Source: a virus
Lineage: Duplodnaviria; Caudoviricetes
Direction: 5' to 3' (one strand)
IMG/VR virus record: IMGVR_UViG_3300033513_000025
Span: 1 to 40,807 of that record
DNA length: 40,807 nt
The position numbers and the translations under genes were made by a program. Below, in pieces: positions 1,708-23,042 of this stretch; the first letter of the stretch is position 1, and each line of letters opens with the position of its first letter. The notes beneath the pieces were generated by a model. That model worked only from the letters and a program-made list of their open reading frames with translations, was not told the DNA's origin and made no database searches.

Positions 1708-3410
1708 TCCCCCTCCTCGTCTATGTTCCTGAGCACGTCCTCTGTCTGGATCACGGCGCTTTTCCCCGTGCCTGGCCATTGCTGCTGGTCGAGCATTGCC
1801 GTGAGTGCCGCGCTGATCAGCAGGTCGTCGTGGCCGTACGCAATCAGGCCGTCGTAGGCCGGAGTTTCCCACACGCCCCAGCGGATCGTCTGGGTCTGGC
1901 CCTGGCGAACCTCGTATTGACAGCTGGCCACCTCGTACCAGAATTGGCGCGTGTCGGCCTGGTCATCCTCTACATAGTCTCTGTAGCGGCCGGTTTCGAC
2001 GACAGAGACGAAATCCCAGCCCAGTTTGCTCTTGAGGCCCTCAGAGAACGTTACTCTGATCAGCTTCTCGCCGAGTGCCCGCTCCAGGAACGATGCCAGA
2101 CCGGCGCCCACACCGGTCGCGTCCACCAGGACGAACATCGCGTGCCAGTGGCGGGATAGGGCGAGGATCTGGTCGAACAGGCTGGCGTGCTTGGTGCCGA
2201 GCCAGAACTTGCGGTCTACGGCTCTGTACGTCGGCAGCCGCCCGATGTCGATTTGGACCTCGACCACGGTCAGGGCGGTGGCGTCGCGCTTCGGGTTCTC
2301 CAGCATCATCCTGGACATTGCATCGCCGGGTTGCTCTTCCTCGCCGGCTACGTCTATCAGCAGGGCGTAGCGCTTGCCGGGTTCTGGCTCGTGCCTGCGC
2401 GGGTGATCGCCTCTCATGAGCGCCCGGCGCAGTTCCGGGAACAGGCCGCCCTGGGCGTCGATCTGCTCCAGGAAATACTGGGTCTTGATGAGTGGGTGGT
2501 TGCGCCCAAGCCTGGCCACTTCTGAGGCGACGTACTCGCCGTATGACGGGACTTCTGCGCCTACGACGTCGGCGTCGTAGAGGAAGACGCGGCGCTGACC
2601 GTCTCGTGCTTCCTGGTGCCTGAGTTGCGCGATGGTCTGAGCCAGGAGGGTCTCGCTGGTCCAGGCCGTGCCCCACAGCACGGTGGTGGCGTTGGTGGAA
2701 GCGCCCATCGGGCGGAAGTCCTTTTGCCACTTGTCGTGTCTGACGTCCTGGGCCTCGTCGCACTCGAGCAGCAGATCAGCCGTTGCCCCAACCACGTTTG
2801 AGTGTGGGTCCGCGGAGAAGAACAGGGCGCGCGCCTTGCCTATCTCGATGATGTACCCCTCGCGCCGTTTGACCGCTCTGCCCCAGTCATTGTCGAGCCG
2901 GTCTGCCAGGCGCATCATGGAGTTAACGGTCTGGGGCTTGAACGTGGGGGAGGCCTTGACGATCTGAGCGCCTTTTCTGCGGTAGAGATGGAGCAGGTAT
3001 GCCTCCAGTTGGCCGCTGAGCTCGTTCTTCCCGGCCTGGCGGGACATCATCACGGCGAAGGTCAAGCCCTTGTTGTACAGGATGGACTTGAGGATGGCCT
3101 GGGCCGGCTCGATCTGGTAGGAGCGCAGGGGGCGCTTGGTGACGACTCTGGTGAAGGTGGTGACGTCGGTGAGCCACCCGAGGATGCCGCCGCCGTGCTC
3201 CTTGCAGACGGTGAGCAGGTCGGCGCGCAGGCGCTTTTCCTGCCGCTCGAGTTTGCGCTTCTCCTTGACCAGCTGGAGCGGTACGTCGGTAGTGAGGACG
3301 TATTCGCTCATGCGCTCCTCGATGAGGAGTATGTTGGTGCGCGTTTCGGCCAGTGTGTGGCGTAGTGTTTTAAGGTGCTCCTGGTCGATCGGGGAATCAG
3401 GCTTTGGCAT
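1701..3410 (-). CDS. terL: Terminase large subunit
   Basis: LRSYQ motif, Walker A-like MSRQAGKN, Walker B LLECDEAQ, nuclease motifs LIDVAG, VDATGVG and HDDLLIS. ATG at 3410 follows GGGAGG. Confidence 0.9.
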   Translation of the reverse strand: MPKPDSPIDQEHLKTLRHTLAETRTNILLIEERMSEYVLTTDVPLQLVKEKRKLERQEKRLRADLLTVCKEHGGGILGWLTDVTTFTRVVTKRPLRSYQIEPAQAILKSILYNKGLTFAVMMSRQAGKNELSGQLEAYLLHLYRRKGAQIVKASPTFKPQTVNSMMRLADRLDNDWGRAVKRREGYIIEIGKARALFFSADPHSNVVGATADLLLECDEAQDVRHDKWQKDFRPMGASTNATTVLWGTAWTSETLLAQTIAQLRHQEARDGQRRVFLYDADVVGAEVPSYGEYVASEVARLGRNHPLIKTQYFLEQIDAQGGLFPELRRALMRGDHPRRHEPEPGKRYALLIDVAGEEEQPGDAMSRMMLENPKRDATALTVVEVQIDIGRLPTYRAVDRKFWLGTKHASLFDQILALSRHWHAMFVLVDATGVGAGLASFLERALGEKLIRVTFSEGLKSKLGWDFVSVVETGRYRDYVEDDQADTRQFWYEVASCQYEVRQGQTQTIRWGVWETPAYDGLIAYGHDDLLISAALTAMLDQQQWPGTGKSAVIQTEDVLRNIDEEGEW

Positions 3411-3933
3411 GTCCTCCCGTTCCCATTCCCAGGTCCACTTGCAGGATCTCCTCGGCGATCTCGTAGGCTTCACGGAGGAGGTCGTCCATATCCTCGCCGC
3501 CGGTCTCAGTCTCCAGGCGCTTGAGGTCACGCTCGATCTTGACGCAGCGGCTGGCGGTCTGGCCCTGCAGCGCGGTCAACCGCGCGATGGTGTCGGGATC
3601 CAGGTTGTCCCAGTTGTCGTCGAGGTAGCGCTCCAGGCGCTCCAGACGGTGCCTGAGGCGGGCCTGGATCTCGCGGAGACTGTCAGGGTTCGTCTCGTCC
3701 TGGCTGTACAGGCCGTGGGTCTGCGCGTTCTTGTTGCCCGGTGGCGCCCCCACGGGCTTCTGACCCCCGCCGTGCGCTGCGCACAGTGGCGGGTTGCTCC
3801 CCCGGACTGCCCAGGCCCGACAGTGCCGGTCGGGTGCGCATAAATGGGAGCATCGTGCGCTTTTGGGCGCGGGGGATGCGCTCGATGGCGAGGTAGCGGG
3901 CGATGTTGAAGGCGAGACGGTAGAGGTGGCCAC
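3397..3933 (-). CDS. terS: Terminase small subunit (start uncertain)
   Basis: C..C..C..HGG motif followed by GAPPGNKNAQTHGLY, typical of TerS N-termini; directly upstream of terL. Confidence 0.7.
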   Translation of the reverse strand: MATSTVSPSTSPATSPSSASPAPKSARCSHLCAPDRHCRAWAVRGSNPPLCAAHGGGQKPVGAPPGNKNAQTHGLYSQDETNPDSLREIQARLRHRLERLERYLDDNWDNLDPDTIARLTALQGQTASRCVKIERDLKRLETETGGEDMDDLLREAYEIAEEILQVDLGMGTGGHAKA

Positions 3934-4598: not shown

Positions 4599-5861
4599 TT
4601 AGAGTTCGGGGTCGTGGGCCAGGTCGTTTGGGGCTGGCCTGCCGCCGAGGCCGTCCAGGTCGTCGAAGACGCATGGCTGGGCGCTTATGAGCTCGTCCGT
4701 GGGGAAGAGGTCGAAGAGGGCGAGTTGATTGTGATGACGGTTGAGGGCGCGCTGAAGGTTTCTAATCTGGTGCGCCATTCCGGCTTTCATGATGGTGTCC
4801 CACGCCTTGCGGTGGGTCTGGCGCAGGACGTAGAGGTGGGAGTTGGCATAGCCAAAGTCGGTGGCGCAGCCGATGCAGCCGTTGCGGCGGATGTTCTGCC
4901 GGGATCCGTCCTGGGCAATGTAGGTGAGGTCGTAGAGGGAGGCGTAGGGGACGTTGAAGCGGTGGATGTAGGCCCAGACGTCCGCGTCGGTCCAAATTGC
5001 CATTGGCTGGCAGTGGAAGAATGGGCGGCCGTGGAGATACTTCTTCTTGGCGCCTTCGAAGAGGTAGCCACGGGTGAGGAAGTTCTTGGCCCTGGAGCGT
5101 GACTCTGAGGCCATTAGGCCCTTGAAGATGAGGTCTACCCCCAGTTGCTCCTGGGCGCGCTCGGCGGGTTCCTTCTTGAGCGCCTGGCAGCAATGCTGGC
5201 TAATCTTGGCCTGCCTGAGTGTGTCGTAGTAGGCCAGGAGCGTGGGATCTGCACTTTGGCTGGTGGAGTAGCGGAGGAAGGTGTCTATGTTGATGCGGCG
5301 GGCGTCCAGTCGGCTCCACGCCTTGCCCAGGATCGGCCACCCGTACTGGTCCGTGCACCACCAGTACGACATGGTGGTGCCGGTGGGCCAGATAAGGCGC
5401 TGTTGCTCGAGTTGGGCGGTGAGCGCCGGCTGGCAGGCGCGCTCCAGCGCGTCGGTGGATTTGAGCTTGCCGTCGGTTTTGAGTACCTCGCCAATGCGGT
5501 CGGTTTCGATGAGGTGCTGCCAGATGATGCGTTGAGCGCTGTACTTGAGCCCTGGCCGGTCGGTCTTGGCCGGCCTGGTCTCGACGAGGTTGAGGTTCCA
5601 GTCGCGCTGCAACTGACGGGCGAACTGGATGCACTCGGGGAATTCCATCCCCGTGTTGCCGTAGATCACGGGCATGCTCTGGGCCTGCTCGGGGCAGGTG
5701 GCGTGGATGAGGTGCCGGAGGACGGTGGAGTCTTTGCCGGCTGAGAAGGCGATCGCCTGGCGCTGGGAAATGTCGAATGCTCGGCGGATGACGTCGGCGG
5801 CGACGTTGATCTTGTAGTGGAGATCCCGGGCCTGCTCGGCGTTGAGCTCAGCCCACTTCAC
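4599..5861 (-). CDS. Phosphoadenosine phosphosulfate reductase-family (PP-loop) protein, likely DNA modification
   Basis: AFSAGKDS PP-loop, NTGMEFPE, CCQALKKEP, GLMASESRSR, RNGCIGC. GTG start overlaps the upstream TGA. Confidence 0.85.
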   Translation of the reverse strand: MKWAELNAEQARDLHYKINVAADVIRRAFDISQRQAIAFSAGKDSTVLRHLIHATCPEQAQSMPVIYGNTGMEFPECIQFARQLQRDWNLNLVETRPAKTDRPGLKYSAQRIIWQHLIETDRIGEVLKTDGKLKSTDALERACQPALTAQLEQQRLIWPTGTTMSYWWCTDQYGWPILGKAWSRLDARRINIDTFLRYSTSQSADPTLLAYYDTLRQAKISQHCCQALKKEPAERAQEQLGVDLIFKGLMASESRSRAKNFLTRGYLFEGAKKKYLHGRPFFHCQPMAIWTDADVWAYIHRFNVPYASLYDLTYIAQDGSRQNIRRNGCIGCATDFGYANSHLYVLRQTHRKAWDTIMKAGMAHQIRNLQRALNRHHNQLALFDLFPTDELISAQPCVFDDLDGLGGRPAPNDLAHDPEL

Positions 5862-6196
5862 GGCTGCGCCTCCAGTGGCCACAGGGTGGCGTATACGTGG
5901 CCGGGATCGGCGGGGGTGTCTATGCGTATCAAGGGAGCGGTGGTGGTGCGGATGGTGTCGGGGTTGGGTGACGTGACGATTTTCAGGGTTTGGAGCAGGC
6001 GTGCGCCGCGCGCGTACTGCTGGTGCTTTTGGTGGGTGAGGTCGGCGCGTACGTGGGGATCGGTGATGTGGTCGAAGAGGTGATTGATCACCTGGTCGTG
6101 GGTGAGGCCGTTCTGTTCGACGTCGTAATTGACGGCGAGTGTAAAGCGCGCGGCCATCACGTCGGATTGAGTGATTTGTGCGGAGAGTTGAGCCAT
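5858..6196 (-). CDS. Hypothetical protein (112 aa)
   Basis: AGGAG RBS, coupled to the downstream gene. Confidence 0.65.
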   Translation of the reverse strand: MAQLSAQITQSDVMAARFTLAVNYDVEQNGLTHDQVINHLFDHITDPHVRADLTHQKHQQYARGARLLQTLKIVTSPNPDTIRTTTAPLIRIDTPADPGHVYATLWPLEAQP

Positions 6197-7779: not shown

Positions 7780-8052
7780 TCACCCACGGCCGGGTGGTAG
7801 CCGACGGGCCGGCGCAGGCCCTGGCAAGGATGGCGTGCCCAGCCGCTGGGCGTCGCGGTGGCCCAGGCGGTATGCGCAGTGGAGTGCGAGCTCGAGCGCG
7901 GCCTGGTGGCGGTGCCAGTCCTGGGGCGCGCTGGCGTATGCAAGGAGTGCCTCGTGGTCCAGGGGGTCCATCAGCTCGCCGAATCCTTCCCGGCTGATGA
8001 GCTCGATCGCGCGCTCGATGAGGTAGCGGTGGTGCTGTGTTCGTTCTGCCAT
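7780..8052 (-). CDS. Hypothetical protein (90 aa)
   Basis: AGGAG RBS and ATG start. Confidence 0.55.
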   Translation of the reverse strand: MAERTQHHRYLIERAIELISREGFGELMDPLDHEALLAYASAPQDWHRHQAALELALHCAYRLGHRDAQRLGTPSLPGPAPARRLPPGRG

Positions 8053-8215
8053 GGGGTGGGGCTCCTGGTGCCCACCTCGCCGATGATTTCCCGGGCGGGG
8101 AGCTCCTTTCCGGCGGGGTGGGCGTGTTTCCTTCTTCTACTACTACCCCCTCAAACCCCTCGCGTGGCCGATCTGGTGGGGCGGGGTGGGCTCGTGGGGG
8201 TAGTAGTAGTAGAAA

Positions 8216-9043
8216 TCAGACCAGGTCCATTTGCTCCTGGCTGCCGTGCAGGAGTGCGTTTCCATCCGCGAGGATCTCCTGCGGCGTGCGCGGGTCGGGC
8301 TGCGCCAGGCGGGCGCGGGCGTTCTTCTCGGCCAGGCGTTCGCGGGCTTCGATGGGCAAGAGCTCGCTGCCTTCCCAGTCAGCCGGGATGGTCTGGGTGT
8401 CGTCCACCATCCACGATTCGCGGGCAATCTCGCGCGGGCTGGGTGCGCCGTGGCTGCGGTTCAAAGCGTTCTTGAGTGCGCGGGTTTCTGCGCGCTGCTC
8501 CCACGTCCAGCCGGTGGGGAGTTTCTTCTCCTTCCCTTCCCGGGTGAGGCGGTCGGCGGTAGTGACGATGCCGACTGCGGGCGTGGCGGCAATCTCGAAC
8601 GCTTCCCGCCAGGTGGCCCCGCCCTGGATCAGGTCGCGGAGCAGCGGCCGGGCGTCGTCGCGCAGGATCCAACAGCGCACACCGATGGCGCCGGCGGGGA
8701 GTTCCTGCGGTCCCATCGGGTCGAATCTCTGGGAATACGGGCATTGCCGCTTTGCCCAGCGTACCAGGATTTTGTAGCCATCGTCGAGGACCAGGTCACC
8801 CCGGACATCGTCCCAGGCGTAGATTTCCCCGCGGAAGATGTTGGCGTCCGTGAGAATCGCGTACTGCGCGGCCGCCATGGCGTGTTCGAGCGAGAGTTTG
8901 GCGCCGCTGGGGAGCATGGTCTGGATTCGGCGCGCCAGTGAAAGCACATCTTGGCGGCTGCCGTATTCGATCAGCGTGAGGTCGGGCGCCGGTGTGGCGG
9001 GCGCGATTACGGTCTGCTTGGTCGTGGCGGTTAGCTCAGTCAT
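8216..9043 (-). CDS. RecT/Redbeta-like single-strand annealing protein
   Basis: ANIFRGEIY..DDGYKILVRWAKR and RAETRALKNALNRS resemble RecT/Bet core motifs; ATG at 9043 with AAAGGAG RBS. Confidence 0.65.
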   Translation of the reverse strand: MTELTATTKQTVIAPATPAPDLTLIEYGSRQDVLSLARRIQTMLPSGAKLSLEHAMAAAQYAILTDANIFRGEIYAWDDVRGDLVLDDGYKILVRWAKRQCPYSQRFDPMGPQELPAGAIGVRCWILRDDARPLLRDLIQGGATWREAFEIAATPAVGIVTTADRLTREGKEKKLPTGWTWEQRAETRALKNALNRSHGAPSPREIARESWMVDDTQTIPADWEGSELLPIEARERLAEKNARARLAQPDPRTPQEILADGNALLHGSQEQMDLV

Positions 9044-9044
9044 T

Positions 9045-9467
9045 CTATTGCTCCTTTCCTGTTGATAGTCTGCGACAGGCCGGACACCGTAGCTCGTATT
9101 GGTTGCCCGGCGCGAACTTTTCCCCACAGGCTGAGCACTCCTTGAGGAGTGCTGGCCAGAACTCATAAAATTTGTTGCGCGCGGCCTGTAACCAGGCTGC
9201 CGGCGTGTAGATTGCGCCATTGCTGGCCCTCTTCCGGACGTCGCGCTGCCACTGGTTGGAGGTCCAGTAGAATCCCTGGCTCTTCCAGAATGCTGCTGCT
9301 TCCGGCTGGTACCATTCGCTTGGTACGATGATCAGGTGGCCGTCCAGCCGTGGACCGGGTCGCATTTTGGTGAGCTGATCGGCGTAGAGCGCGCGGTAGT
9401 AGGCTGCCCGGCCGGCTGCCTCGCCGGCCGCCTTCTCGGCGTGCAAGTCACTGCGCCACATTGCCAT
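9045..9467 (-). CDS. Hypothetical protein with C-terminal zinc ribbon (140 aa)
   Basis: CSAC...CPAC; coupled to neighbours. Confidence 0.65.
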   Translation of the reverse strand: MAMWRSDLHAEKAAGEAAGRAAYYRALYADQLTKMRPGPRLDGHLIIVPSEWYQPEAAAFWKSQGFYWTSNQWQRDVRKRASNGAIYTPAAWLQAARNKFYEFWPALLKECSACGEKFAPGNQYELRCPACRRLSTGKEQ

Positions 9468-9718
9468 TATCCCACCTCCTGGAGCGCGGCGGTGGCCTGC
9501 GTGTCCACGTGGCCAAAGTCCTGCCTACCCCAGCAGCCGATTGCCCATCCCCCGTTGGGTACCAGCATTTCGACCTCGACGTCAGGGTGCTCCGGCTCTG
9601 CGATGATCACATCGCCGTGACCGCCAACGTAGCCGGTGCGGGCGGCGAATTTGGTGCCGTGGTAGGCTTCCAGTGCTTGCAGGATTTCGTCTATCGTGTT
9701 AAAGTGTCTCTCGTCCAC
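9467..9718 (-). CDS. Hypothetical protein (83 aa)
   Basis: GTG start with AAAGGAG RBS. Confidence 0.65.
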   Translation of the reverse strand: MDERHFNTIDEILQALEAYHGTKFAARTGYVGGHGDVIIAEPEHPDVEVEMLVPNGGWAIGCWGRQDFGHVDTQATAALQEVG

Positions 9719-9754
9719 AGGTCTCCTTTCTGTCTGATTGCGCTTGTGGGCATC

Positions 9755-9789
9755 CCCCAGCCTGGAGGCGGTCCAGGCTGGGGCTTTTT
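9755..9789 (+). terminator. Hairpin with T-run (antisense or bidirectional terminator)
   Basis: CCCCAGCCTGGA-GGCGG-TCCAGGCTGGGG followed by CTTTTT. Confidence 0.55.
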
Positions 9790-10057
9790 ATCTGCCTGAC
9801 TGGCGGCACATCGGGCAGAATCGGCTGGCGTGCTTCCGGTTCTTCAGTTGCCGCTCGAGTTTGCGGTCGCCTTGGTACGTGGCTGCGATTGCCCAGGTGA
9901 CGCCTTGCTCGATTGCTGCCGCCAGGATCCGGGCTCCATTGCCTGCGCGGTGCACCGCTAGCCGGCGGTCGAGTTCCCCCTGCCCGTCCTTGCACCATCC
10001 GATGTAGTGCCAGGCCCTTCCCCCCACTGGCTTGTCAAAGTGGAGCAGGTACACCAT
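9788..10057 (-). CDS. Small GIY-YIG family endonuclease (89 aa)
   Basis: VYLLHF...HYIGW...RRLAVH...LERQLK pattern, C-terminal CPMC. Confidence 0.8.
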   Translation of the reverse strand: MVYLLHFDKPVGGRAWHYIGWCKDGQGELDRRLAVHRAGNGARILAAAIEQGVTWAIAATYQGDRKLERQLKNRKHASRFCPMCRQSGR

Positions 10058-10217
10058 TAGCGTCTGCCTCTTTTCCCGCGCTTCCTGCGCGGGGGCTTCG
10101 ACTTCCCGGCCAGCTCTGCCAGGAGCAGGCAGGAGCGGCCGCTGACGCGCATCCCATAGCGCGCTTTGCGCTGCTTGTTCTCTCTCGCCCTCCATTTCTC
10201 GGTCATTGCTGTCCCCC

Positions 10218-10451
10218 TTATCCTATCCATCGGCGCTTCCAAGCGCGCAGGTCGTCGCGCGTCTGGACGTTTTCGAGATCGGCCATTGCTGCCGCTTCGA
10301 GTCGCTTGAGTTGTTCGATCAATTCGGCTAGGTCAGTCGGCGGTCGATCTTGAAGCTCCAGCTGGTGCGCAACGCTCATTGAGGCAACTGGCACCGTGAT
10401 GCTTCCGTCTGTTACCGCTGGCCGTCCGCTTGCCGTTCTGGTGGCTCTCAT
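10218..10451 (-). CDS. Hypothetical protein (77 aa)
   Basis: ATGA overlap with the upstream gene. Confidence 0.55.
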   Translation of the reverse strand: MRATRTASGRPAVTDGSITVPVASMSVAHQLELQDRPPTDLAELIEQLKRLEAAAMADLENVQTRDDLRAWKRRWIG

Positions 10452-10684
10452 TGTATGCCCGTCCTTTCTGAGATGACTGTCAGTGCTTGCCTGATCCCTG
10501 CGGCATAACTCTCTTGCACCGCTTGCTCTCTGAGTGCTGCGGTTGCCTGGTAGCGCGTGGTCCGAGGATCGGAGAGCGTAGCAGCGTATTCGATGGTCTG
10601 GCAGTATTCCTGGACTAGGTCCGTAATCGCCCGTTCGAGTGCTGCCGTGTCAATTAGTGCCTGCATTGCGAGTTGGCTTGTCAT
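10448..10684 (-). CDS. Hypothetical protein (78 aa)
   Basis: AGGAAAGG RBS, helical composition. Confidence 0.6.
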   Translation of the reverse strand: MTSQLAMQALIDTAALERAITDLVQEYCQTIEYAATLSDPRTTRYQATAALREQAVQESYAAGIRQALTVISERTGIQ

Positions 10685-11121
10685 TGGTTTTGCCTTTCCT
10701 GATCTGGCTCACCTGGTGTCCCACCCGCTGGAGGTCCAGCAGGTGGGACTTGACCGTAACCGGTGCCTATCGGGGCGGGCTTGCTCCGTTCTCGCGTTGT
10801 CCGCGCGTCTCTCGTCGGGCTGTCTCAGCACGGGCGCGCGGGGCTGCAACGGTCGAGGGCACACGTTGCCGGCCAGGCTATGAGCGTGTCAGGTTGGGCG
10901 AGAGTAGCGCTTTAAGGTTCTTTCTGGCGCATCCTCCGCCAGATATACTAATCATACCATAGAAACCAGGGAGAAAAGTGTGTGGTTGGTGAAGGAATAG
11001 TTAATTCCCAAGTTGGGATAAGTGCGACTTTGGGGAGATCGGGGCTTGGCTCCTGATCCTGGGGGCGGCCAGCACAGGGCCAACGGCTGGAAAGCCGTAC
11101 AGCAAGCAGGGGCAAGCGGCC

Positions 11122-11206
11122 GCGGATAACCGTCGAGCTTCCCACCCGCGACAGGCAGACCGACCGGCAGGAGAAAAAACCGGCGGATAACCGTCAAGCT
11201 TCCCAC
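11122..11206. repeat. Two 24-bp direct repeats GCGGATAACCGTC(G/A)AGCTTCCCAC
   Basis: Copies at 11122-11145 and 11183-11206, one mismatch. Confidence 0.85.
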
Positions 11207-11455
11207 TGACGGCAGGCAAGGCGACCAGCAAGGCGGGATCTCCTCTCCTCTCCTCTCTTCCCGCGCACGACAGGTACCGCTACCTCGCAGACGAGGCAGG
11301 CACAACAATTCTCCCCAGCCAGCAGACGAGAGACGGCGCGGGCGGGCCGGGCCGGGCGGCGACAAAAAACCAAGATCAGGGGGCAATAGGCACGCCATTG
11401 GCACGAACCCGCCCGGCCCGGCCCGCAAGGCCCACGGCGACCGCGGACCAGCGGG

Positions 11456-11797
11456 CTAACCGAAACCGGGCAGGGGCAGAGCGCGGGCGAGCACAGGGGA
11501 AGCGGACGAGGAAGCAGAGGGGACAGCGACAGGGGGCACGGGCAGCGGGCGCAGCACGAGGCGCGCCCAGCGGGACCGAGCGCAGGAGAACCGGCGCACC
11601 GGACGCGCCAGCGCAGCAGCGGCCAGACGGCGCGAAAGCGCGCAAGCCCGGCGAGAGAAGCCCAGCCCGCAGGACCAGCGGACCGGGCAGGCGAAGCAGA
11701 GCGCCAGGCCGGCGGCAGCGGCGCCCCCACCGGCGGAGGGCGGGACGCCGGCGCACAGGCCACCAGCGGGAACGGGAGCGAGACGCGGATCAGCCAC
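11456..11797 (-). CDS. A-less gene D (113 aa) with C-X18-C-X2-C-X5-C motif
   Basis: The GTG start overlaps the gene C stop (GTGGCTGA); it ends at a TAG made by a surviving A. Confidence 0.55.
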   Translation of the reverse strand: MADPRLAPVPAGGLCAGVPPSAGGGAAAAGLALCFACPVRWSCGLGFSRRACALSRRLAAAALARPVRRFSCARSRWARLVLRPLPVPPVAVPSASSSASPVLARALPLPGFG

Positions 11798-12206
11798 GGG
11801 CCACCACCCGAAACCACCCGCCACACGCGAGGAACGCGCGCGGAGGGGAGCAACGCGCCAGGAGCGCAGCAGCGCGCGAGAGGCCGCGCAGGCCCAGGCC
11901 GGCCACAGGCACACCGGCGACCGCCACGCACCGACCGGACAGCCGGACCGGGACGCGGATCACCCACAGGCCAGCGCGCAGGCGCACCGGGAGCGCACAG
12001 CCCAGCCGCCCGGCCCAGCGCGCGGCGAAAGCCCCAGCCCGGACCGGGCAGGAAAAGGCACAGGCCAGCACGGAGCCGGGCGAAGCGGCGCCGGCGAAAG
12101 GGCCAGCGCCCACGCCAGCGGGACCGACAGACAGAGCCGCAAGCCGGCCAGCGCGGAAGGCGGACCAGGCCACGGCACGGACGGAAGCGAGAGCCAGATC
12201 ACCCAC
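11790..12206 (-). CDS. A-less gene C (138 aa, MGDLALASVRAVAW...)
   Basis: The GTG start overlaps the gene B stop (GTGGGTGA), with a GGGGGT RBS; amphipathic, protein-like sequence. Confidence 0.6.
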   Translation of the reverse strand: MGDLALASVRAVAWSAFRAGRLAALSVGPAGVGAGPFAGAASPGSVLACAFSCPVRAGAFAARWAGRLGCALPVRLRAGLWVIRVPVRLSGRCVAVAGVPVAGLGLRGLSRAAALLARCSPPRAFLACGGWFRVVARG

Positions 12207-12633
12207 AGCACACCCCCAGCCCCGGACCACCAGAGCGAACGCGGGCCAGCGGCACCCACGCCAGCGCCGGGCAGGCGCCCAGCGCCACCGGCGAACCGAC
12301 AAAAACGAGCACGGAGCCGGGCCACACGACGACGGAGACGGCCAGGCCAGAGAGAAAGGCGCGGGCACGCAGGGAGCGCGCGCGGGCAACCCGGCCAGCG
12401 CCGAAAAACGACCACGCGACCACGGGACCGCAAGGGGAGGGCACAGAAGAGCAGGCGCCAGCGCCAGCGGAGCCGACCGAGAGAGAGAAGGCCAGAGCAG
12501 CAGGAAGACCCACAGCAGCACCCCCCAGCCCCGGCCCGAGGACAGCCCCGGACCGGGAGCGAAAGCGCAGAAGCGCAACCAGGCGGGCAGCCGGCGCCCG
12601 GGCGGCCACCCGGACACACGGACCGGAAAGCAA
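12199..12633 (-). CDS. A-less gene B (about 144 aa; start uncertain, frame is open further upstream)
   Basis: TTG at 12633 lies 6 nt after GGGGGTGG; it ends at a surviving TGA. Confidence 0.45.
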   Translation of the reverse strand: MLSGPCVRVAARAPAARLVALLRFRSRSGAVLGPGLGGAAVGLPAALAFSLSVGSAGAGACSSVPSPCGPVVAWSFFGAGRVARARSLRARAFLSGLAVSVVVWPGSVLVFVGSPVALGACPALAWVPLARVRSGGPGLGVCCG

Positions 12634-13055
12634 GCGGCACCACCCCCGCCGGCGACGGGGACCGAGACCGCCGGAAAGCGCCCGGGCCGGGCGCAACCAC
12701 CCGCAGCCCGCCGACCCACGAGCCCAGCCCGCCAAGGGCGAGCACCCACACGGCCGGACACCACCCAACCCACCCCGCACACGGCCCAGCGCGGACCGCC
12801 CAACGCGACCGGCGCCAGCCCCCCAGCGACGGGACCCCAGAGAGGAGGGCGAAGAAAAGCGGGAAGGACCCCGCCGGGACGCAGCCCGGCGCACACAGCG
12901 CAACCCCCGCGACCAGGCACCAGGCCGGGGGAGAACCCCCGGCCACACGACGACCACCGGAAGGAAGAAGAACCCGGGCACCCCCGGGACGAAGACCACC
13001 CGGCACCCAAGGCCGCACCCCCCACCCGGACCGGGCAGCGGGAGGGAGGACGGGG

Positions 13056-13496
13056 CTAACCCCAGCGCAGCGCCAGGCCGCCCGAGCAGAGAGAAACCAC
13101 CACCCGGACGCCCGCCGCCACCGCCACCGCGCGGAAAGCCGCAGCGAGGCGGAAGCGGGCGGCGCCAGCCAGGACGCAGCCCCAGGGCCCCCAGGGCGCG
13201 CCAGCCCCCCCGCAACGCCAGCGGGAGACGCCGACGGCACCCAGGGCGCCAGCCAGGGAAGCAAGAGGCACGAGGCACCCCCAGGCCGGGAGGAGAACCC
13301 CCCAGCGGAAAGGCCCAGACGAGCGGGGCCACCGGAGGACCAGGAGGACGAAGGACGGGCGAGGGGGACCAGGGGAACACAGCCCCAGCCCAACCCCGGG
13401 GCCGCGAGCGCCGCGCGCCACACGGGGGAGGGAGCAGGCCCCGCCCGAGGGAGCCGACCGGCGCCAACCCCCGCGCCGGGGAGGGAGGGCGGACAC
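13056..13496 (-). CDS. A-less gene A (about 146 aa; start uncertain)
   Basis: First candidate ORF after the A-less promoter; it ends at a surviving TAG. Confidence 0.4.
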   Translation of the reverse strand: MSALPPRRGGWRRSAPSGGACSLPRVARGARGPGVGLGLCSPGPPRPSFVLLVLRWPRSSGPFRWGVLLPAWGCLVPLASLAGALGAVGVSRWRCGGAGAPWGPWGCVLAGAARFRLAAAFRAVAVAAGVRVVVSLCSGGLALRWG

Positions 13497-13591
13497 CCCG
13501 CCCCACAACAGGCCCCGAGGCCAGCCCGGCGCAACCCCGCCGGGGAGGGGGACCCCCACCGGGCCCCGACCACCCACCCACGAACAACAAC

Positions 13592-13620
13592 AGGATACCA
13601 CAAAGCGACAAAAAAAGCAA
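13592..13620 (-). promoter_or_regulatory. Promoter TTGCTT-N17-(TGG)TATCCT for the A-less operon
   Basis: 17-bp spacer, extended -10 TG; its only A is the conserved -11 A. Confidence 0.65.
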
Positions 13621-14785
13621 GAGGGAAGGGGACCAGATAACCCAAAGATAACCCAAACAGAGGCACCAAAAAGAAAACGGACACGAAAACCCGAAGGGGC
13701 AAGACAACCCGACAAAGCGAGGGAAAACGCCGGCGCAGCAGGCCAGCCCCAGCCACCGGCCAGCCCCAGCCCACCGGCGGGAGCGCCCCAGCCGACCGGC
13801 CAGCGCCACCCAGGCCCAGCCGGCCCCCCGCCGAGACAACCCCCACCAGGGAAATTTGGCGGGAACGCGCGAGAGAAGAGGCGGAGGGGGAAAGCGCGAG
13901 CGCGCGAGTGGCCGACAAGAAAAAGATAACCCGGGGAGGAGGGTGGAGGATCAGGCGGGGGGAAGGAGATAACACGGGGGCGAGGCGCGCGCGGGGCCGC
14001 AGTGGGAGGGGGGCAACACTCCCGCCAAAAGTCAGAGTTCCAGGACCGTCCCGGGGCGGGAGGCGGTTGGAAAGTCGCTGCTTTCGGCCCCCCTCCCCAA
14101 GGCCCCGCCTTCCCCCGCGCGCACAGGGCCAGCGGCATGAAGGGAACGGTATCGGTCTGTTGGCGGGGAAAGTGCCGCTGTTCAGGATGCCGCTGGGCCT
14201 GAGCCCCCGCCCCCGGAACGACAATGAGAGCCTGCCGCGGGACGAGACAGGGCTTGGGATTGGTCACGGCTTCAGACGCCCCACGAGGGGGACCCCGACC
14301 TCAATTGAAAGTGGCGGTCAAGGCCGGGAGGCCCCCAGAGAGGTGCAGGGGTTGGCTTTGCGGGTTAGGGACCAGTCCTTGAGGTCTTGGTTGAGATGGA
14401 TTGCGGGTGTTTGCCCCTGTCGGGTACCACTCGCTGCGCCTGGAGGGGGCTTTGCTGGGTGGCGAGGTGCCGCGCGTGGGCCGGGGTGGCGCCTTTGAAG
14501 TTCTGGCTATGCGCGGCTGCGGGGCTCCGGTTCTCCTCCCCGGAGTTGCGCATAGCCTCTTCTGGGACGGCAAGAGGCGAGGGCTTTCGGTTGAGGGGCT
14601 CAGGGATAAAGTTGTGCGGTACTCCGCGCATTCGGCCCATGCTCCAGGACCGTCAGCGGACTGAGCGGCAAATCACTGGAGAAGTGTGAGGCCTTGTACT
14701 GAGGGCCAGCAGGAGATCAGGTACCCATTCCCCTAAAACAAAAAGATAAGCGCGACGCGAGGTAGTGACGGTTTCGCAGGGGCTG

Positions 14786-14801
14786 GGGAAGGTCATAGCA
14801 C
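14786..14801. promoter_or_regulatory. Palindrome TAGCACA-AA-TGTGCTA (LexA-box-like operator)
   Basis: Perfect 7-bp arms; the GCAC half-site is the same as in the two boxed promoters. Confidence 0.45.
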
Positions 14802-14823
14802 AAATGTGCTAAATGGGCCGCTC

Positions 14824-15303
14824 TTACACTCCGTCTCGCGCGTCTTTTTTGTGAGAATCAATATCGTCGGGGTGAACGTACCACACTCCACAGCGGATGG
14901 CGCGAATGGCTCCAGTGCGAGCCTGGTACTGGATGGTGTGCCGGTTGACGTGGAACTGCTCGGCTGCCTGGCGGGTGGTGATGTAACCTGCTGGCGGGGT
15001 AGGGGGCACACGCTGGCTGATCCGGTCGCGCTCACGTGCGCCGGTGATGTTCTCGACGTTGACCAGGATGAGGGCACCATCGTGGCGAGCTTGGAGGCGC
15101 CCGCGCTTGATCCAGCCGTAGATCGTCTTGGGGCTGTTGCCGGTGAGGGCGGCAGCCTCGCGCACGCTTCGCCAAGGGCTTGGCTCATTGGCGGGTGTGG
15201 GTTGGCCGATCAGGCAGGGGTAAATGTTACAGTCTCCGCAGTGGTTTGTTGCAGCGGGACAGGCTGCGGGCTTGGGTCCATAGAGCAATTGGGGCGTGGT
15301 CAT
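14824..15303 (-). CDS. Tandem MerR/excisionase-type (HTH_17-like) DNA-binding protein
   Basis: SVREAAALTGNSPKTIYGWIKRGRL and TTRQAAEQFHVNRHTI; ATGA overlap with the upstream gene. Confidence 0.8.
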   Translation of the reverse strand: MTTPQLLYGPKPAACPAATNHCGDCNIYPCLIGQPTPANEPSPWRSVREAAALTGNSPKTIYGWIKRGRLQARHDGALILVNVENITGARERDRISQRVPPTPPAGYITTRQAAEQFHVNRHTIQYQARTGAIRAIRCGVWYVHPDDIDSHKKDARDGV

Positions 15304-16166
15304 TTCTCCCTCCTGCACTTGTAGGGCCAAAACTCGTTGTAGGGGATCGAGCCAAACCATCGGGTATGCCACCAGTACTTGACGAAGCGCCTTAGCTCCA
15401 GGTCTGTCCAGGGTGGGTGGACGTAGGAGTTCTTTTTCATGGTGTCGAGTGGCTGGTATCTCATCGGGCGGGGGTCTATGCCCCATTTGTGCTTTAGCGT
15501 TTCGCAGCGATAAAGTGCATCGGCGGGCGTGTCGTCGAAGCCGGCGAGAACGTAGACGCCGATCGTCTTGACGCCGATGCCGGCCCGGCGCAGGCGCTGG
15601 ATGGCGTCGTAGACGGCTTGCTCGTCGCGCGTGTGGTCCCAGGCCAGGCGGACTTTGAAGAGGTCCAACTCTGCCAGGCGGCGGGCGTGGTGGTCGGTCA
15701 AGAGGCGCGCGTCGAGCCCCTGGTTAAAGTCCACCCCTGGGACGGGCTTGAGCCGGTCAACGACGTGGTCGAAGTGGCGCTTGGAGCAGGCCAGCAGGTT
15801 GTTGTCGCACACGATAGGCTTGGGCTGCCAGTCCGGCAACTCGACCAACTCTCCCTCGATCTTGGGCACGGCGCAGAACTTGCACTTGTTGGGGCATCCG
15901 CGGGAGGTGAACGTGGCGTCGGGGTTATGGTGGTGGAGGGCATTGGTCTCGCCGCCGATCTGCGCGGTGCCGGCGAGAAACTCGGGGTTGAGGCTGACGG
16001 CGGGGCCGCCGGCGCGCACGTGGAGGCCCTGTCCGCGGTAGAAGGCGGCCCACTTGCGGGCCTGGGGCAATTGCCAGGTAAAAACGACGGAGAGGTAGGC
16101 AACGCCTGCCTGTACCCAGTGGCAGAGGTGGTCGTTCCACGTGGTGTGCGGGCTGGCGTTGCTCAT
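15300..16166 (-). CDS. Radical SAM protein
   Basis: TSRGCPNKCKFC (CxxxCxxC), DNNLLA, DFNQGLDARL, YVLAGF. Confidence 0.88.
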   Translation of the reverse strand: MSNASPHTTWNDHLCHWVQAGVAYLSVVFTWQLPQARKWAAFYRGQGLHVRAGGPAVSLNPEFLAGTAQIGGETNALHHHNPDATFTSRGCPNKCKFCAVPKIEGELVELPDWQPKPIVCDNNLLACSKRHFDHVVDRLKPVPGVDFNQGLDARLLTDHHARRLAELDLFKVRLAWDHTRDEQAVYDAIQRLRRAGIGVKTIGVYVLAGFDDTPADALYRCETLKHKWGIDPRPMRYQPLDTMKKNSYVHPPWTDLELRRFVKYWWHTRWFGSIPYNEFWPYKCRREK

Positions 16167-16396
16167 CACTGCCCTGGCTTTCTGCCTGGCTTGAGGGTGG
16201 CGGCAACTCGCTCGACGTCGGTGACGCGGACGCGCCAGAGTTTGGTGCCGTCGCGCTGGGCAGTGATGCGGCCCTCGGTGGCCCAGCGCTGGATGGTGCG
16301 GGCTGGTACGCCGGTGTGGCGGGCGGCGTCGCGGACGCTGACCAGGTTGTTGGGCCTGGCGCGGGCCTGACGGCGGTTCTGGGTTTTGGTGCTCAC
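16166..16396 (-). CDS. HTH_17-like DNA-binding protein (76 aa)
   Basis: SVRDAARHTGVPARTIQRWATEGRI; GTGA overlap. Confidence 0.8.
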   Translation of the reverse strand: MSTKTQNRRQARARPNNLVSVRDAARHTGVPARTIQRWATEGRITAQRDGTKLWRVRVTDVERVAATLKPGRKPGQ

Positions 16397-16536
16397 GGTG
16401 CACCTGTGAGGTCGAGGGCGGGGCCGTTGAAGTTGAGTGTGGGTGTGGGGAGAAGGATGGGAGCGAGGGCAAGTGTGATGAGGGCGGCGGTTACGATGGC
16501 GAGGGCCACGAGGGCTAGCTTGGTGTCTTTGCTCAT
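16393..16536 (-). CDS. Small single-TM membrane peptide (47 aa)
   Basis: AAAGGAG RBS, first gene after a consensus promoter. Confidence 0.65.
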   Translation of the reverse strand: MSKDTKLALVALAIVTAALITLALAPILLPTPTLNFNGPALDLTGAP

Positions 16537-18096: not shown

Positions 18097-18262
18097 TGGG
18101 TTCCTCCGGTAGGGTGTAGGGCGGGATGGCTGGCACGATGAGCGCGCGGCGCCCAGTGGCTGCTTCGGCGGCTGTGCGGAGATCGGTCAGGGTGATGGTG
18201 TCGAGGTCCTGGAGCAGGGCCTGGCGGATTGGGTCAGTGAGCGGGCAACAGAGTTCATCCAC
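18059..18262 (-). CDS. Hypothetical protein (67 aa)
   Basis: GTG start with GGAGG RBS at the end of the FtsK gene. Confidence 0.55.
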   Translation of the reverse strand: MDELCCPLTDPIRQALLQDLDTITLTDLRTAAEAATGRRALIVPAIPPYTLPEEPNAPKTTESGPRA

Positions 18263-19676
18263 GTTCGGCCTCCTCCGCCAGGGCGACGATGCGGGCGGCG
18301 CGGTGGTAGAAGGCGCCCTCGGGGGCGTGGCCGAGCAGGTCGCGGCATACGCAGGTTATAAAGCCTCGGCGGTAGCCGGTGCCGGCTGAGTCGTGGCGGC
18401 TTGGCCAGAGGGATAGAGCGCGCAGTTGGTTGGCCAGGGCCTGGTCGGGGTCCGCCTGGATTGGTTGCGGGTCTGGCTCGACCTTCTGGATCTGAAACAG
18501 CGGCTCGGCCTGGTGGGGAAGCCGGCTGACCACGTGGGCGATCTCGCGCTCGGTGATGTGGGCGACCTGGAAGCGGATGGCGCGGCCTTCGGCTATGGCT
18601 ATAAAGTCCCCCTGGCCTTGCAACCTCTCTGCCCCGGTGCCGCTCCAGCCGGTTGCGGTGCGTGCATCCTCGATGCTGGTCACTCGGCCCACGAAGCGGG
18701 TGGGAAAGTTTGCTTTGACGAGTGGGCCTAGCACGGCGGCGGTGGGTTTCTGGGTGGCGGCGACGACGTGTATGCCTACGCTACGGCCGCGCTGTACGAG
18801 GCGGGTGAGCGCCCACACGGCGGCTGGGCCGCCGAGCATAAGCAGGTCTGCCAGTTCGTCTATAAAGAGCACGATGGTGGTGCGGAGGCCGGTGGTGGGA
18901 TTGGTGGGGTCGGGGTCGGTGGGTGATGGGGGGCGTGGGTATTTGTGGGGGTTGTCGGCTCGGTCTGTTCGGGCGTCCATGAGGTGTACCAGGGTCTGGA
19001 TGGCGCCGAGGGCCTCCCGGTTGTCGGTGACCGGCGGGATGGCCAGGTGTCTCAAGCCGTCGAAGGGTGCGAACCCGCCCCTGCCTCCATCTACGAGGAC
19101 CAGGCGCAGATCGGTGGCGGTGTTGGCCAGCGCCAGGCTGGTGATCATCGCCTGCAGCAGGACCGTCTTGCCTGATCCGGTGGTGCCGGCCACCAGGATG
19201 TGGGCGACGTCGGGCGAGGGCAGGCGGACGAGGAGCGGTGCGCCGTCTTCGGCGAGGCCGAGGACGGCGGTGATGGGGGGAATTGGGGGTTGAGGATTGG
19301 GGCTTGGGGATTGGAGGTTGGCGACGGTGTCTGTGAGTTGGTCGTAGAGGCGGAGGAGGTGGACGGGCTGGGGGTCGGCGCGCGGGATCTCGACGGCCAG
19401 GGCCGCGCCTGTGCGGCTGACGCGGCAGTTGTCGGTCTGCATGGCGGCGGCGAGTTCGTCGGCCAGGTTGGTGATGGGGCCGAGGCGCTGGCCGATGGAC
19501 GGGATGACCTGGAAGCGTACCCAGCGCGGGGTGACGGTGCCGCCGGTGACGTGGGCCTGGATCTTGTTCTGCCTGAGTACCTGCTCGATGCGGTCGGCCT
19601 GGAACTCCAGGGCCTGGCGGATGGGTTTAGGCGTGGCGGTCTGGTTCTGACCTGGTGGAAGTCTGAGATTTGTCAT
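18255..19676 (-). CDS. FtsK/SpoIIIE-family DNA translocase ATPase
   Basis: HILVAGTTGSGKT, LFIDELADL, GRSVGIHVVAATQKP, GAERLQGQGD. Confidence 0.92.
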   Translation of the reverse strand: MTNLRLPPGQNQTATPKPIRQALEFQADRIEQVLRQNKIQAHVTGGTVTPRWVRFQVIPSIGQRLGPITNLADELAAAMQTDNCRVSRTGAALAVEIPRADPQPVHLLRLYDQLTDTVANLQSPSPNPQPPIPPITAVLGLAEDGAPLLVRLPSPDVAHILVAGTTGSGKTVLLQAMITSLALANTATDLRLVLVDGGRGGFAPFDGLRHLAIPPVTDNREALGAIQTLVHLMDARTDRADNPHKYPRPPSPTDPDPTNPTTGLRTTIVLFIDELADLLMLGGPAAVWALTRLVQRGRSVGIHVVAATQKPTAAVLGPLVKANFPTRFVGRVTSIEDARTATGWSGTGAERLQGQGDFIAIAEGRAIRFQVAHITEREIAHVVSRLPHQAEPLFQIQKVEPDPQPIQADPDQALANQLRALSLWPSRHDSAGTGYRRGFITCVCRDLLGHAPEGAFYHRAARIVALAEEAERG

Positions 19677-20633: not shown

Positions 20634-20684
20634 GAATTTCGTGGCCAAACAATTCCCGGTCTGAATTTCGTGGTCAAACAATTC
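20634..20684. repeat. Two 22-bp direct repeats GAATTTCGTGG(C/T)CAAACAATTC between parM and parR
   Basis: Copies at 20634-20655 and 20663-20684. Confidence 0.85.
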
Positions 20685-21792
20685 AGTCAAGGTACCCGGC
20701 CCGGCGGGCCAGTTTGGCCAGGCCGCGGGCGTTGGCGGTGACGGGATCTGGTGCTATCTCGGTGTGGGGCCACTGGCGCCTGATGCGCTCGCCCAGCGCG
20801 AGTGCTCCGCCTCCCAGGCACAGGACGCGGAAGCGGCGGGCGTTGTCCACACGCTGCTCGACGAAGCGGACTACTTCGCTGCCGTGGGCTTGCACAGCCT
20901 GGCGCACGGCGCTGGTTACTTCCACTGCTTGCCCCTCCACGAAGACGTGGGCCTTCTGGCCGTTGGTGACCTGGCGGGTGAGTACGTCTGCCTCGTGCAG
21001 GGACAACTCCAGGCCGTAGCGCTGCTGGATGGTGGACGCGATCGCCTCGGCGGAGCGGCGCATTCCCAGGTTGTCCCCACCCGTGTAGCGGGTGCTGATC
21101 TTGCCGCCCTCGATGGCAACCAGGTCCAAAGTGTTGAATCCTATGTCTACGATGAGGGTCGGGGCTTTGGCGGCGTCGGTGCCGCGTGTCCACTGGCCGG
21201 TGTTGGTGAGGCCCCAATCGAACCACCCAGCGACGGGCTGGGCTACGCGAGCGCGTACCTGGGTGATGTCCATCTCGGCGGGCGCGCCGTTGACAGCAAA
21301 CGCGTGGTGGCCGACCATCCACTGGTGCATTCCGTCTTCCGTCTGGCGGGCCTGTTCGGGGTCGAGCAGGATCTCCACGGGTAGGGCAACAGCGATCGCC
21401 AGGGAGTGTGAGCCTCCGTCTATGAGGGGCCACAGGGTGGCGTACAGGAGTGCGCGGGTTTCCGGGCCGTCCACGAAGCGAGCAAAGTCCATCCGCTCGA
21501 TGGGCCGGGCGTAGCGCTCGACGGCCTCGCCGGCCAGGTAGGATTGTCCATCGAACGTGACGACGTGCGGGCGGCTTCTCTCGCGGCCTCCGCGTACGAT
21601 GCCGGCCAGGTTCAATGCGCCGGTAGACGTGGTCGAGCCGATGCCGACCACGGCCGGGATCGCGGAGGTGACGATCTGGAGTTCGGTCACCCCTTGGATG
21701 GTGACCATCTGGACTTCGGCGGCCTTGGAGCCGCCGTGGCCTGGGTCCCATCCGATCTTACGAACTGCGGCTTGGTGATTGTTGGTGGTCAT
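20683..21792 (-). CDS. parM: ParM/StbA-family actin-like ATPase
   Basis: IGWDPGHGGSK (phosphate 1), IVDIGFNTLD (phosphate 2), LGGGA (adenosine), ANARGL. Confidence 0.85.
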   Translation of the reverse strand: MTTNNHQAAVRKIGWDPGHGGSKAAEVQMVTIQGVTELQIVTSAIPAVVGIGSTTSTGALNLAGIVRGGRERSRPHVVTFDGQSYLAGEAVERYARPIERMDFARFVDGPETRALLYATLWPLIDGGSHSLAIAVALPVEILLDPEQARQTEDGMHQWMVGHHAFAVNGAPAEMDITQVRARVAQPVAGWFDWGLTNTGQWTRGTDAAKAPTLIVDIGFNTLDLVAIEGGKISTRYTGGDNLGMRRSAEAIASTIQQRYGLELSLHEADVLTRQVTNGQKAHVFVEGQAVEVTSAVRQAVQAHGSEVVRFVEQRVDNARRFRVLCLGGGALALGERIRRQWPHTEIAPDPVTANARGLAKLARRAGYLD

Positions 21793-23042
21793 TGTAGTTG
21801 GTCTCCTTTCTGATTTTGAAGCGTGTACCAGGCCAGCTTCTGGCCCAGGTTGAGGTGTTCGGTGGTGGTGGTGACGTGACACCCAATCGTGTTTAAGCGC
21901 CGCTGGAGGTAGGGCGCATAGTCGTGCGAGACGTGCAGGTGCACGACGTCGCCGGCCAGGACGTCGGCGAGGCTGACGAGTTGGCGGACGACCTCGAAGG
22001 CCCATTCTCGCCGACGTTGTGCGTTGGCCGGTGCGTCGGTCCAAACGGGGTTTGGTTGATGGCCAGCGATGGAGTAGGGCTTGAGGGCCCCGGGTCCGTT
22101 GAGGGTTAGGATGTGGTGGCAGCGCCTCTCTGCCCAGTAGAGTTGTTTGTCATAGAGCTGGCGACCAGGTGAGTTATCTGGTGTTGGGGCCTGGATGATG
22201 GAGATGCGGCGGGGGTAGGATTGCTCGGCGGCTGGCGGCTTCTGGTATACGAGGGCGGTCTCGGTGGTGATCATCGGGTAGTCGGGGTTGTTGGCGGCGC
22301 AGATGCGACGGTAGCGGGAGGGGATGGTTCGGCGTTGCTCGCGGCCGGTGAGTGAGAAGCCGATGGCGTGACAGAGAGTTTGGGTGTCGGCGGTGACTGG
22401 GACGACGTTGGCTTTGTGGACCTTGTCGCCCACGATCAAAACGAGGGTTCCGCCCGGGACCAGGACGCGCTGGCACTCGCGGTACACCTGGATCATCGCC
22501 CGCAGGTACGTTTCGTAGACGTGGATGTTGGCCAGTTGCCGCGGGTGGAATCCGTAGCATGAGCCGTTCGGGCCGAGAGTGGTGCGGGTTAGGGAGTTGC
22601 CCGAATGAGCGTTCCAGTTTGAGAAGAGGTCAAAATAGGGCGGGCTGGTGATGATGACCGGGATGGAGCTGGATGGCAGGGGCAGGTGGGAGGCATCCCA
22701 CTGCCCGACCTGCGCCGGCGCGCTGAAGAGGCTTTCGGTGTGGATCCGGAGCGCGTTTTGCTGTTGGAGTTGTGCCCACGGCGTTTCGACGTCGCCGGTG
22801 ATGACCTGGCGGCCGGTGTACAGGGCCAGCAGGATCGAGCCGGTCCCACCCATCGGGTCGAGGAGGGTTTGACCTGGTTGGGTATACAGGTGGATGAGGT
22901 GGCCTAGCCAGTTGAGGTTAGTCTTGGCCTGGTGCTCGAAGGACTGTTCGTCGAAGCGCAGACTCCGCCTTTGGTGGTGGTCGCGCGGGAAGGTGAAAAC
23001 CGGGGCTTGGCCCGGGCTGGTTTGCGTGTTTAGAAGTGTCAT
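21789..23042 (-). CDS. N4-C/N6-A DNA methyltransferase-like domain fused to a DUF6884-like domain
   Basis: LLDPMGGTGS and IITSPPY; the C-terminus has RQLY..YWAE..RREWA..V..QL..LNLGQKLAWY. Confidence 0.78.
   Translation of the reverse strand: MTLLNTQTSPGQAPVFTFPRDHHQRRSLRFDEQSFEHQAKTNLNWLGHLIHLYTQPGQTLLDPMGGTGSILLALYTGRQVITGDVETPWAQLQQQNALRIHTESLFSAPAQVGQWDASHLPLPSSSIPVIITSPPYFDLFSNWNAHSGNSLTRTTLGPNGSCYGFHPRQLANIHVYETYLRAMIQVYRECQRVLVPGGTLVLIVGDKVHKANVVPVTADTQTLCHAIGFSLTGREQRRTIPSRYRRICAANNPDYPMITTETALVYQKPPAAEQSYPRRISIIQAPTPDNSPGRQLYDKQLYWAERRCHHILTLNGPGALKPYSIAGHQPNPVWTDAPANAQRRREWAFEVVRQLVSLADVLAGDVVHLHVSHDYAPYLQRRLNTIGCHVTTTTEHLNLGQKLAWYTLQNQKGDQLQ

Follow-up and report, generated by a model that had tools for sequence, protein, structure and literature searches.

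Adenine-free genes in a tailed phage genome and their relatives in phages and plasmids

The window, a stretch of 40,807 nt analysed here in full (virus record IMGVR_UViG_3300033513_000025; Duplodnaviria, Caudoviricetes), contains an island at 11400–13854 whose coding strand, the minus strand, is almost free of adenine (0.3% A) and whose template strand is nearly T-free. On the plus strand these 2,455 bases comprise 598 A, 971 C, 878 G and only 8 T (at 11457, 11790, 11960, 12199, 13057, 13596, 13638 and 13649), compared with 8322 T among the 40,807 bases of the whole window (20.4%), a depletion with a binomial log10 P of -225. The longest run without T extends for 857 bases (12200–13056), whereas the longest runs in the window without A, C or G reach 62, 39 and 35 bases. 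The base count bears out an earlier note on this DNA, which had reported the 8 T and the 857-bp run, and its three remaining GATC sites are confirmed; its description of the island as non-repetitive is mostly right, although short internal duplications (D4, D5 and D19) are present. The low-A tract exceeds these limits on both sides, with 7 A in 173 nt of the minus strand at 13858–14030 (4% A) and 4 A in 143 nt at 11313–11455.

Of the eight adenines kept on the coding strand, four belong to stop codons and one to an Ile codon; a sixth is the -11 base of a predicted promoter, and the other two lie in GGTTATC repeats. Reading along the minus strand, the island, a putative early operon, begins with a tract at 13660–13854 that has no A in 195 nt and lies upstream of the predicted promoter. 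A predicted operator follows at 13635–13653, consisting of two GGTTATC direct repeats 11 bp apart, with a matching peptide reading common to P0014; the motif GGTTA[GT]C has seven minus-strand copies in total, every one of them inside 11131–13931. The predicted sigma-70 promoter (13592–13620, minus strand) reads TTGCTT, a 17-bp spacer and TATCCT with an extended -10 TG, and its sole A (13596) is the -11 base. It scored below threshold in a consensus scan, which found no site there; the same promoter design is seen in the relatives L058 and L099.

Four genes are called on the minus strand. Open reading frame (ORF) 1 (13056–13340) is a probable A-free gene of about 95 amino acids with an uncertain start and a TAG stop (13057). 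It is followed by 542 nt at 12514–13055 that lack A and hence any possible stop codon, in which a coding-like signal moves from one frame to another; the stretch may reflect decayed genes, recoding or a structured RNA. Probable A-free ORF 2 (12199–12513; 104 amino acids) has a GTG start after a G-run and a TGA stop (12199). The third gene (11790–12206; 138 amino acids, TGA stop at 11790) is a conserved A-free member of a family here named SAFRAG, and is supported by homologues and by a family profile. Probable A-free ORF 4 (11456–11797; 113 amino acids) has a GTG start overlapping the upstream TGA and a TAG stop (11457). The GTG starts at 12513 and 12206 follow G-runs, not a standard ribosome-binding site, and those at 12206 and 11797 overlap an upstream TGA. 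A codon model trained on the remaining genes of the phage backs coding in 13310–13056, 12410–12199, 12206–11790 and 11797–11650, and it is this codon signal that makes ORFs 1 and 4 probable genes. ORF 2 has an FFGAGR-like stretch in common with ORFs of L058, as judged by eye only, and no homologue among 187 database candidates. After the last stop, a perfect 18-bp inverted repeat forms a predicted terminator-like hairpin (11342–11426, unstranded), and two 61-nt repeats, each with GGTTATC (11106–11227, minus strand), precede another promoter-like site, near 10955.

The SAFRAG gene has nine direct homologues and, by profile, 216 clusters at 50% identity, and its family had no earlier name. Among 158 proteins retrieved in SAFRAG searches, residues that require A in their codons make up a median of 5% (range 0–42%), versus 38–51% in five ordinary genes of the window. 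The sole named carrier of the window's SAFRAG gene is a Chloroflexota (Ardenticatenaceae) genome. The AlphaFold model (predicted local distance difference test, pLDDT, 81.5) has a small alpha/beta fold with weak matches to RRM/ferredoxin-like structures (best Z 4.7, root-mean-square deviation 3.4, 75 residues aligned); there was no Foldseek match at E 0.001 and no usable atlas match, and sequence and fold searches of the PDB gave weak rows only. In relatives, the usual partner of SAFRAG is another A-free gene, of DprA/SLOG fold, which has 253 homologues with named sources in Chloroflexota, Competibacteraceae and Acidobacteria. This SLOG partner is predicted to adopt a Rossmann SLOG fold (pLDDT 94.7). 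Foldseek matches it with probability 1.0 and a template-modelling (TM) score of about 0.5 to ShosA (PDB 8zva) and Helicobacter pylori DprA, the top match, ShosA, being weak (E 3.5e-3, TM 0.49), and the atlas gives TM 0.77 to a DNA_processg_A cluster. The Pfam family DNA_processg_A is matched by 4 of 88 members at best E 0.0026, below the cut-off. Structural neighbours of the partner include YAcAr proteins, a number of which carry a fused NADAR ADP-ribose hydrolase. Where SLOG genes are purged most completely, the lone A-bearing codon mostly specifies a conserved Asp. Two records (P0025 and P0150) read SAFRAG and SLOG domains as a single ORF, which may be a true fusion or a missing stop. ORF 1 had no match in family-profile scans and ORF 4 was not recognised by the SAFRAG or SLOG profiles, large protein databases not having been searched with either.

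The phenomenon recurs in both phages and plasmids. Thirty non-redundant related islands, chosen for low A and including that of the window, hold 423 A in a total of 30,275 nt. In cyanobacterial plasmids (16 fetched of the 28 cyanobacterial records matched), the SLOG gene has 0.8–4.3% A in 11 of 16 cases, in loci of 22–30% A, and 26–33% in the other 5; the gene SGL_RS01470 on plasmid pSYSX of Synechocystis PCC 6803 has no A at 125 fourfold sites. Translated searches (tblastn) with SLOG homologues of normal composition returned 28 and 27 plasmid records and no phage, and the same search with an A-free SLOG protein returned nothing in plasmids or phages, probably owing to the low-complexity filter. 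SLOG matches occur in 2 of 401 genomes of a phylum sample. The A-free plasmid SLOG gene often lies just ahead of ArdA, SSB or Rad52 genes, with ERF and zincin genes also among its neighbours; an ArdA or antirestriction annotation is found near 6 of the 16 plasmid loci, two of which are normal-A copies. Among 99 phage ORFs scanned downstream of islands there were eight SWIM, two ArdC-N, one Rad52 and one RecT match.

Several further observations concern these relatives. A SWIM zinc-finger gene is often the first gene of normal composition past the island (L021 1980–2711, L058 11370–12011 and others). Directly 5' of the A-free tract there is often an A-rich, T-poor tract that could form a hairpin with it (L058 9100–9156, with 29 A's; L051 3740–3760; and, immediately 5' of the SLOG gene, L104 and L105). 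The same operator-like repeats occur at the island promoter and at the promoter that comes next downstream (L064 6860–6895 and 7670–7720; L070 9380–9435 and 10840–10900), which suggests co-regulation. Public annotation misses A-free genes or places them on the wrong strand (L100 8293–8724; L102 7515–7874 and 8293–8724; L101 7976–8101).

The window represents a tailed phage of 40.7 kb whose map closes into a circle: its ends overlap by 127 nt, and a portal gene spans the junction. The contig is classed as having direct terminal repeats, and its CheckV estimate of 49% is not reconcilable with the closed map. Among the 67 ORFs scanned are minus-strand genes for a capsid-protease fusion, terminase, tail proteins, a replication initiator, ParM, FtsK, a methylase, and radical-SAM and PAPS-reductase-like proteins. 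The island sits between helix-turn-helix genes and a run of small ORFs leading to the terminase; these small ORFs (7780–10684, minus strand) are of normal composition, have no family match and are probably early genes, and the small and large terminase subunits (1701–3933, minus strand) share the island's orientation and lie some 7.5 kb downstream of it. The PAPS-reductase-like, radical-SAM and N6/N4 methylase (with DUF6884) genes at 4599–5882, 15300–16472 and 21789–23042 (minus strand) may form a DNA-modification set; no PurZ-type match was found among the scanned ORFs. The FtsK and ParM-like actin genes (18255–19676 and 20683–22044, minus strand) suggest a plasmid-like prophage state, and a weak integrase-like match was also seen in the survey of the neighbourhood. 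A blastn search of the island against GenBank phages gave no match, and PADLOC, NCBIfam and downstream-ORF scans recognised no known anti-defence gene in the window.

Silent positions are revealing of the kind of selection involved. The window's SAFRAG gene has no A at 101 fourfold sites, compared with 12.8% A in the phage's other genes, and homologues with less than 10% A have 128 A at 6304 such sites against about 896 expected, an expectation that is low because three short loci had no background. Retention of silent A relative to expectation is 0.07 after G, 0.10 after T and 0.17 after C; because depletion follows all three bases, the cost appears to be per adenine and not per motif. At silent sites, T and C as well as G have taken the place of A. 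Selection at the tRNA level or a codon need can be ruled out, since silent sites are purged too. An ultraviolet-proof template was rejected, as it does not agree with sense GG (template CC) at 164 per kb versus 70 in the control, and pyrimidine-flanked A's are depleted too; exemption through GATC methylation is an unlikely cause, as 11 of 26 island GATC sites are Asp codons of the SLOG gene and the others are stops or Ile codons.

The purge also has a history. Copies of the same families outside islands have 18–33% A (L073, L075, L069 and 5 of 16 plasmids), among them SAFRAG copies with 20% A in L073 and 18% A in L075. A tree of 47 SLOG sequences, in which composition bias limits the reading of deeper branches, needs three state changes and places one gene of 18% A inside an A-free clade with starred support. 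Because copies outside islands have normal A and this gene nests among A-free ones, the constraint lies on the nucleic acid, and the purge is evidently the product of long-lived selection that was relaxed in some lineages. Conserved ORFs and A-free homologous islands in relatives uphold the strand-specific selection proposed in the earlier note, which had named homologous regions of normal A content lacking conserved ORFs as something that would speak against it, and they also lend support to its probable early counter-defence operon, a role suggested by position and neighbours.

The geometry of the islands bears on whether transcript or DNA is the target. The A-free strand is always the sense strand. 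Among the 41 loci examined, the island usually lies upstream of the small terminase subunit gene (terS), diverging from it in 7 loci and co-oriented in 10, while two islands lie in the middle of the head module, after the portal gene. In most plasmids the low-A tract ends 25–50 nt past the stop codon; at several loci, only the ORF and its untranslated region (UTR) are low in A. A tract that ends so close after the stop, or covers only ORF and UTR, favours a cause at the level of the transcript.

The explanation favoured here, to which we assign a probability of roughly 0.4, is that the island's mRNA escapes adenine-directed RNases or modifiers of the host. These small genes, purged of A at silent and non-silent positions alike, would probably form a first-expressed counter-defence operon, as position and neighbours suggest. 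Host attack would cut or modify RNA at adenosines, a hazard directed, we infer, at RNA, and an mRNA without A would survive it. Each A would be a potential cut site, such that a reduction from about 25% A to a handful could lengthen the life of the mRNA many-fold, and this gain would offset the cost of proteins in which K, N, D, E, Q, H, I, M, T and Y are almost absent. The adenines that stay would then be the irreplaceable ones: those in stops, the -11 promoter base, the operators and one conserved Asp in the SLOG partner. Candidate hazards include Csx1/Csm6-type RNases of type III CRISPR systems, toxin mRNA interferases and CmdT-like ADP-ribosylation. A Csx1 RNase is reported to cut after A in several contexts (PMC4712672), and CmdT, an mRNA ADP-ribosyltransferase toxin, is described as modifying the A in GA (PMC11618068). 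Both of the Chloroflexota genomes that carry the SLOG gene encode Cas10/Cmr2 and one of the two a TM1812-type Csx1, which indicates opportunity only. Among the four causes listed in the earlier note, an A-free mRNA fits best; its version by tRNA cleavage fails, since the purge extends to silent sites and UTRs.

A number of findings weigh against an mRNA hazard. In 8 of the 21 loci with a promoter call (38 examined), A-free DNA reaches 100–300 nt past the predicted promoter in the upstream direction, with at most three A between -60 and -160; stretches of 50–150 nt poor in A lie upstream in about 6 of 11 A-free plasmid loci, and the window has its 195 A-free nt. The -35 and -10 boxes are themselves A-minimal. 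Such flanks and boxes favour a cause at the DNA level, and an mRNA hazard fails there unless the flank is transcribed. In some loci (L053 and L066) the upstream flank consists of a tandemly repeated A-free unit, unlike that of the window. In addition, the Csx1_HEPN profile matched neither of the two carrier genomes, a number that provides no test of co-occurrence; CmdT is GA-specific, which the purge is not; and the A-specific RNase cited above is archaeal. The island proteins have no PADLOC or NCBIfam match, and the SLOG profile found no partner gene in any frame of this phage.

A per-base hazard on DNA, the reading that these flanks favour, is less likely, though the strongest of the alternatives. 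Here a template without T, or a non-template strand without A, would let promoter and genes stay copyable and transcribable under damage to or modification of T, whether a host enzyme or chemistry of the element itself is responsible; DarT2-like ADP-ribosylation of exposed single strands and hypermodification are examples. It accounts for the A-free flank and the A-minimal promoter boxes, and it is in keeping with the NADAR fusions among the YAcAr neighbours of SLOG, with the genes for handling single-stranded DNA that adjoin islands, and with the PAPS-reductase-like, radical-SAM and methylase genes of the window. However, the strand exposed in transcription is the T-rich non-template, many islands are confined to the ORF, and these portal/terminase phages presumably package double-stranded DNA. 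Across the 41 loci, with 10-kb flanks, no locus but the window's has PAPS or methylase homologues, and radical SAM was seen at a single further locus. The hypermodification suggested in the earlier note is possible for this phage, but modification genes are rare beside other islands and plasmids show the same pattern. The target motif of DarT2 requires two T's; a motif-specific DarT2, which the note had also listed, should therefore spare isolated T's, yet 857 nt have none and A is depleted in every context.

Expression that spares ATP appears rather improbable. Some defences, among them RADAR, Cad1 and nucleosidase types, deplete adenine nucleotides, and during such depletion a T-free template could be transcribed, and the sense strand copied, without ATP or dATP. 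A cost that is per base, context-free and specific to A agrees with this, as does the abundance of G; but tRNA charging needs ATP, and translation should fail at about the time that transcription does. The best fold match of the SLOG partner also points this way, since ShosA is the antitoxin to ShosT, a toxin which disrupts purine metabolism (PMC11961720). That match is weak, however, and ShosA works via DNA binding.

Universal escape from restriction, in which the first-entering DNA could hold no Type I site or A/T-containing palindrome, is more doubtful still. Same-strand A..T pairs 7–12 nt apart number 18 in the island and 466 in a control stretch, a hazard on DNA would cover the flanks, hydrophobic residues remain encodable only when the sense strand is the one without A, and ArdA lies nearby in plasmids. 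A leading region without Type I sites is reported to be capable of sufficing for infection (PMC12455610). Nevertheless, the observed/expected ratios of GGCC (1.0), GCGC (1.0), CCGG (1.24) and CCWGG (1.75) show no depletion, and GATC has a 2.2-fold excess; ArdA and other neighbours retain normal A; islands occur mid-genome as well, after the portal gene; and the gain per A would seem too small to remove whole amino acids. CGCG, GGNCC, CCSGG, CCCGGG and CCGCGG are below expectation in islands, and equally low outside them. The loss of palindromic sites offered in the earlier note is not supported, given these site counts and the normal A of neighbouring ArdA genes.

A mutational purge without benefit, in which a reverse transcriptase like that of diversity-generating retroelements or an adenine deaminase converts sense-strand A's until only essential ones survive, would account for the flanks and for the adenines retained, but it has very little probability: RVT_1 is found in none of 24 viral records or in the window genome and, in 2 of 5 large plasmids, only at unrelated positions; silent sites are taken by T and C too, unlike in A-to-G deamination; and the A-free state persists over deep divergence.

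An artefact of sequencing or assembly is refuted for the class of such islands, because the same composition occurs on homologous genes in many independent assemblies and in finished isolate plasmids; the encoded proteins moreover fold confidently in prediction and the retained A's occupy functional positions, which leaves this possibility a negligible one. In its favour, contig ends cluster at islands: in 39 viral contigs, 5 ends fall within 300 nt on the upstream side and 6 within 300 nt on the downstream side, where about 0.6 would be expected on each (an approximately ten-fold excess). As this clustering is symmetric, it is read as assembly breakage and not as genome termini. Islands in these contigs are probably under-assembled, hence under-counted. 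All 782 words sampled from 9000–16500 are present in run X1, which may be the source sample and is therefore not independent.

No description of adenine-free bacterial, phage or plasmid genes was found in the literature covered, which did not extend to subscription journals and bioRxiv supplements. The wider proposal, that phages and plasmids of several bacterial phyla keep three-letter genes as A-free antidotes expressed while the host destroys everything containing adenine, stands in our estimate at about an even chance. If it is true, a one-line composition scan would find counter-defence genes missed by annotation, and the genes would point to a widespread adenine-directed defence, possibly one so far undescribed. 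That genes can drop one base, and that proteins can fold from about ten amino acids, is unexpected in itself. Its age, its recurrence in different hosts and its reversibility mark the pattern as the record of a strong selective force, as yet without a name, that acts when infection begins. The pattern also provides a sequence-only marker for candidate counter-defence genes, which are often missed or placed on the wrong strand in annotation.

The closest known systems are the site-depleted first-entering regions of phages such as T7 and T5 and the leading regions of plasmids, which carry anti-defence genes. For Murciavirus, the report cited above (PMC12455610) describes escape from Type I restriction-modification through a site-depleted leading region. 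The islands resemble these regions in having small, putatively early genes that lead a cassette, anti-restriction and single-stranded-DNA-handling genes in relatives, and sequence shaped by defence. They differ in that known leading regions avoid motifs, whereas the islands bar an entire base from one strand, which reshapes the proteins; the purge also tracks particular genes, not a whole region, in both orientations and mid-genome. The island works like a defence-proofed leading cassette, yet fails the site-depletion test for that family. The SLOG partner has the predicted Rossmann SLOG fold of the DprA/Smf-type proteins, including ShosA and YAcAr, but differs in being short and free-standing, in scoring below the Pfam cut-off, in having no toxin partner, in being encoded on mobile elements and in its near lack of A-coded residues. 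Variable repeats of diversity-generating retroelements undergo adenine-specific change, and the islands share with them a loss specific to sense-strand adenine; they differ in having no reverse transcriptase in cis, a kilobase scale and whole conserved genes, and a repeat search of 10700–14900 found no template/variable repeat pair differing at adenines. Engineered ACA-less mRNAs, which resist MazF, are alike in that one message stays translatable while an RNase destroys the others; here, however, the message is natural, and all of its adenines, not one triplet, have been removed.

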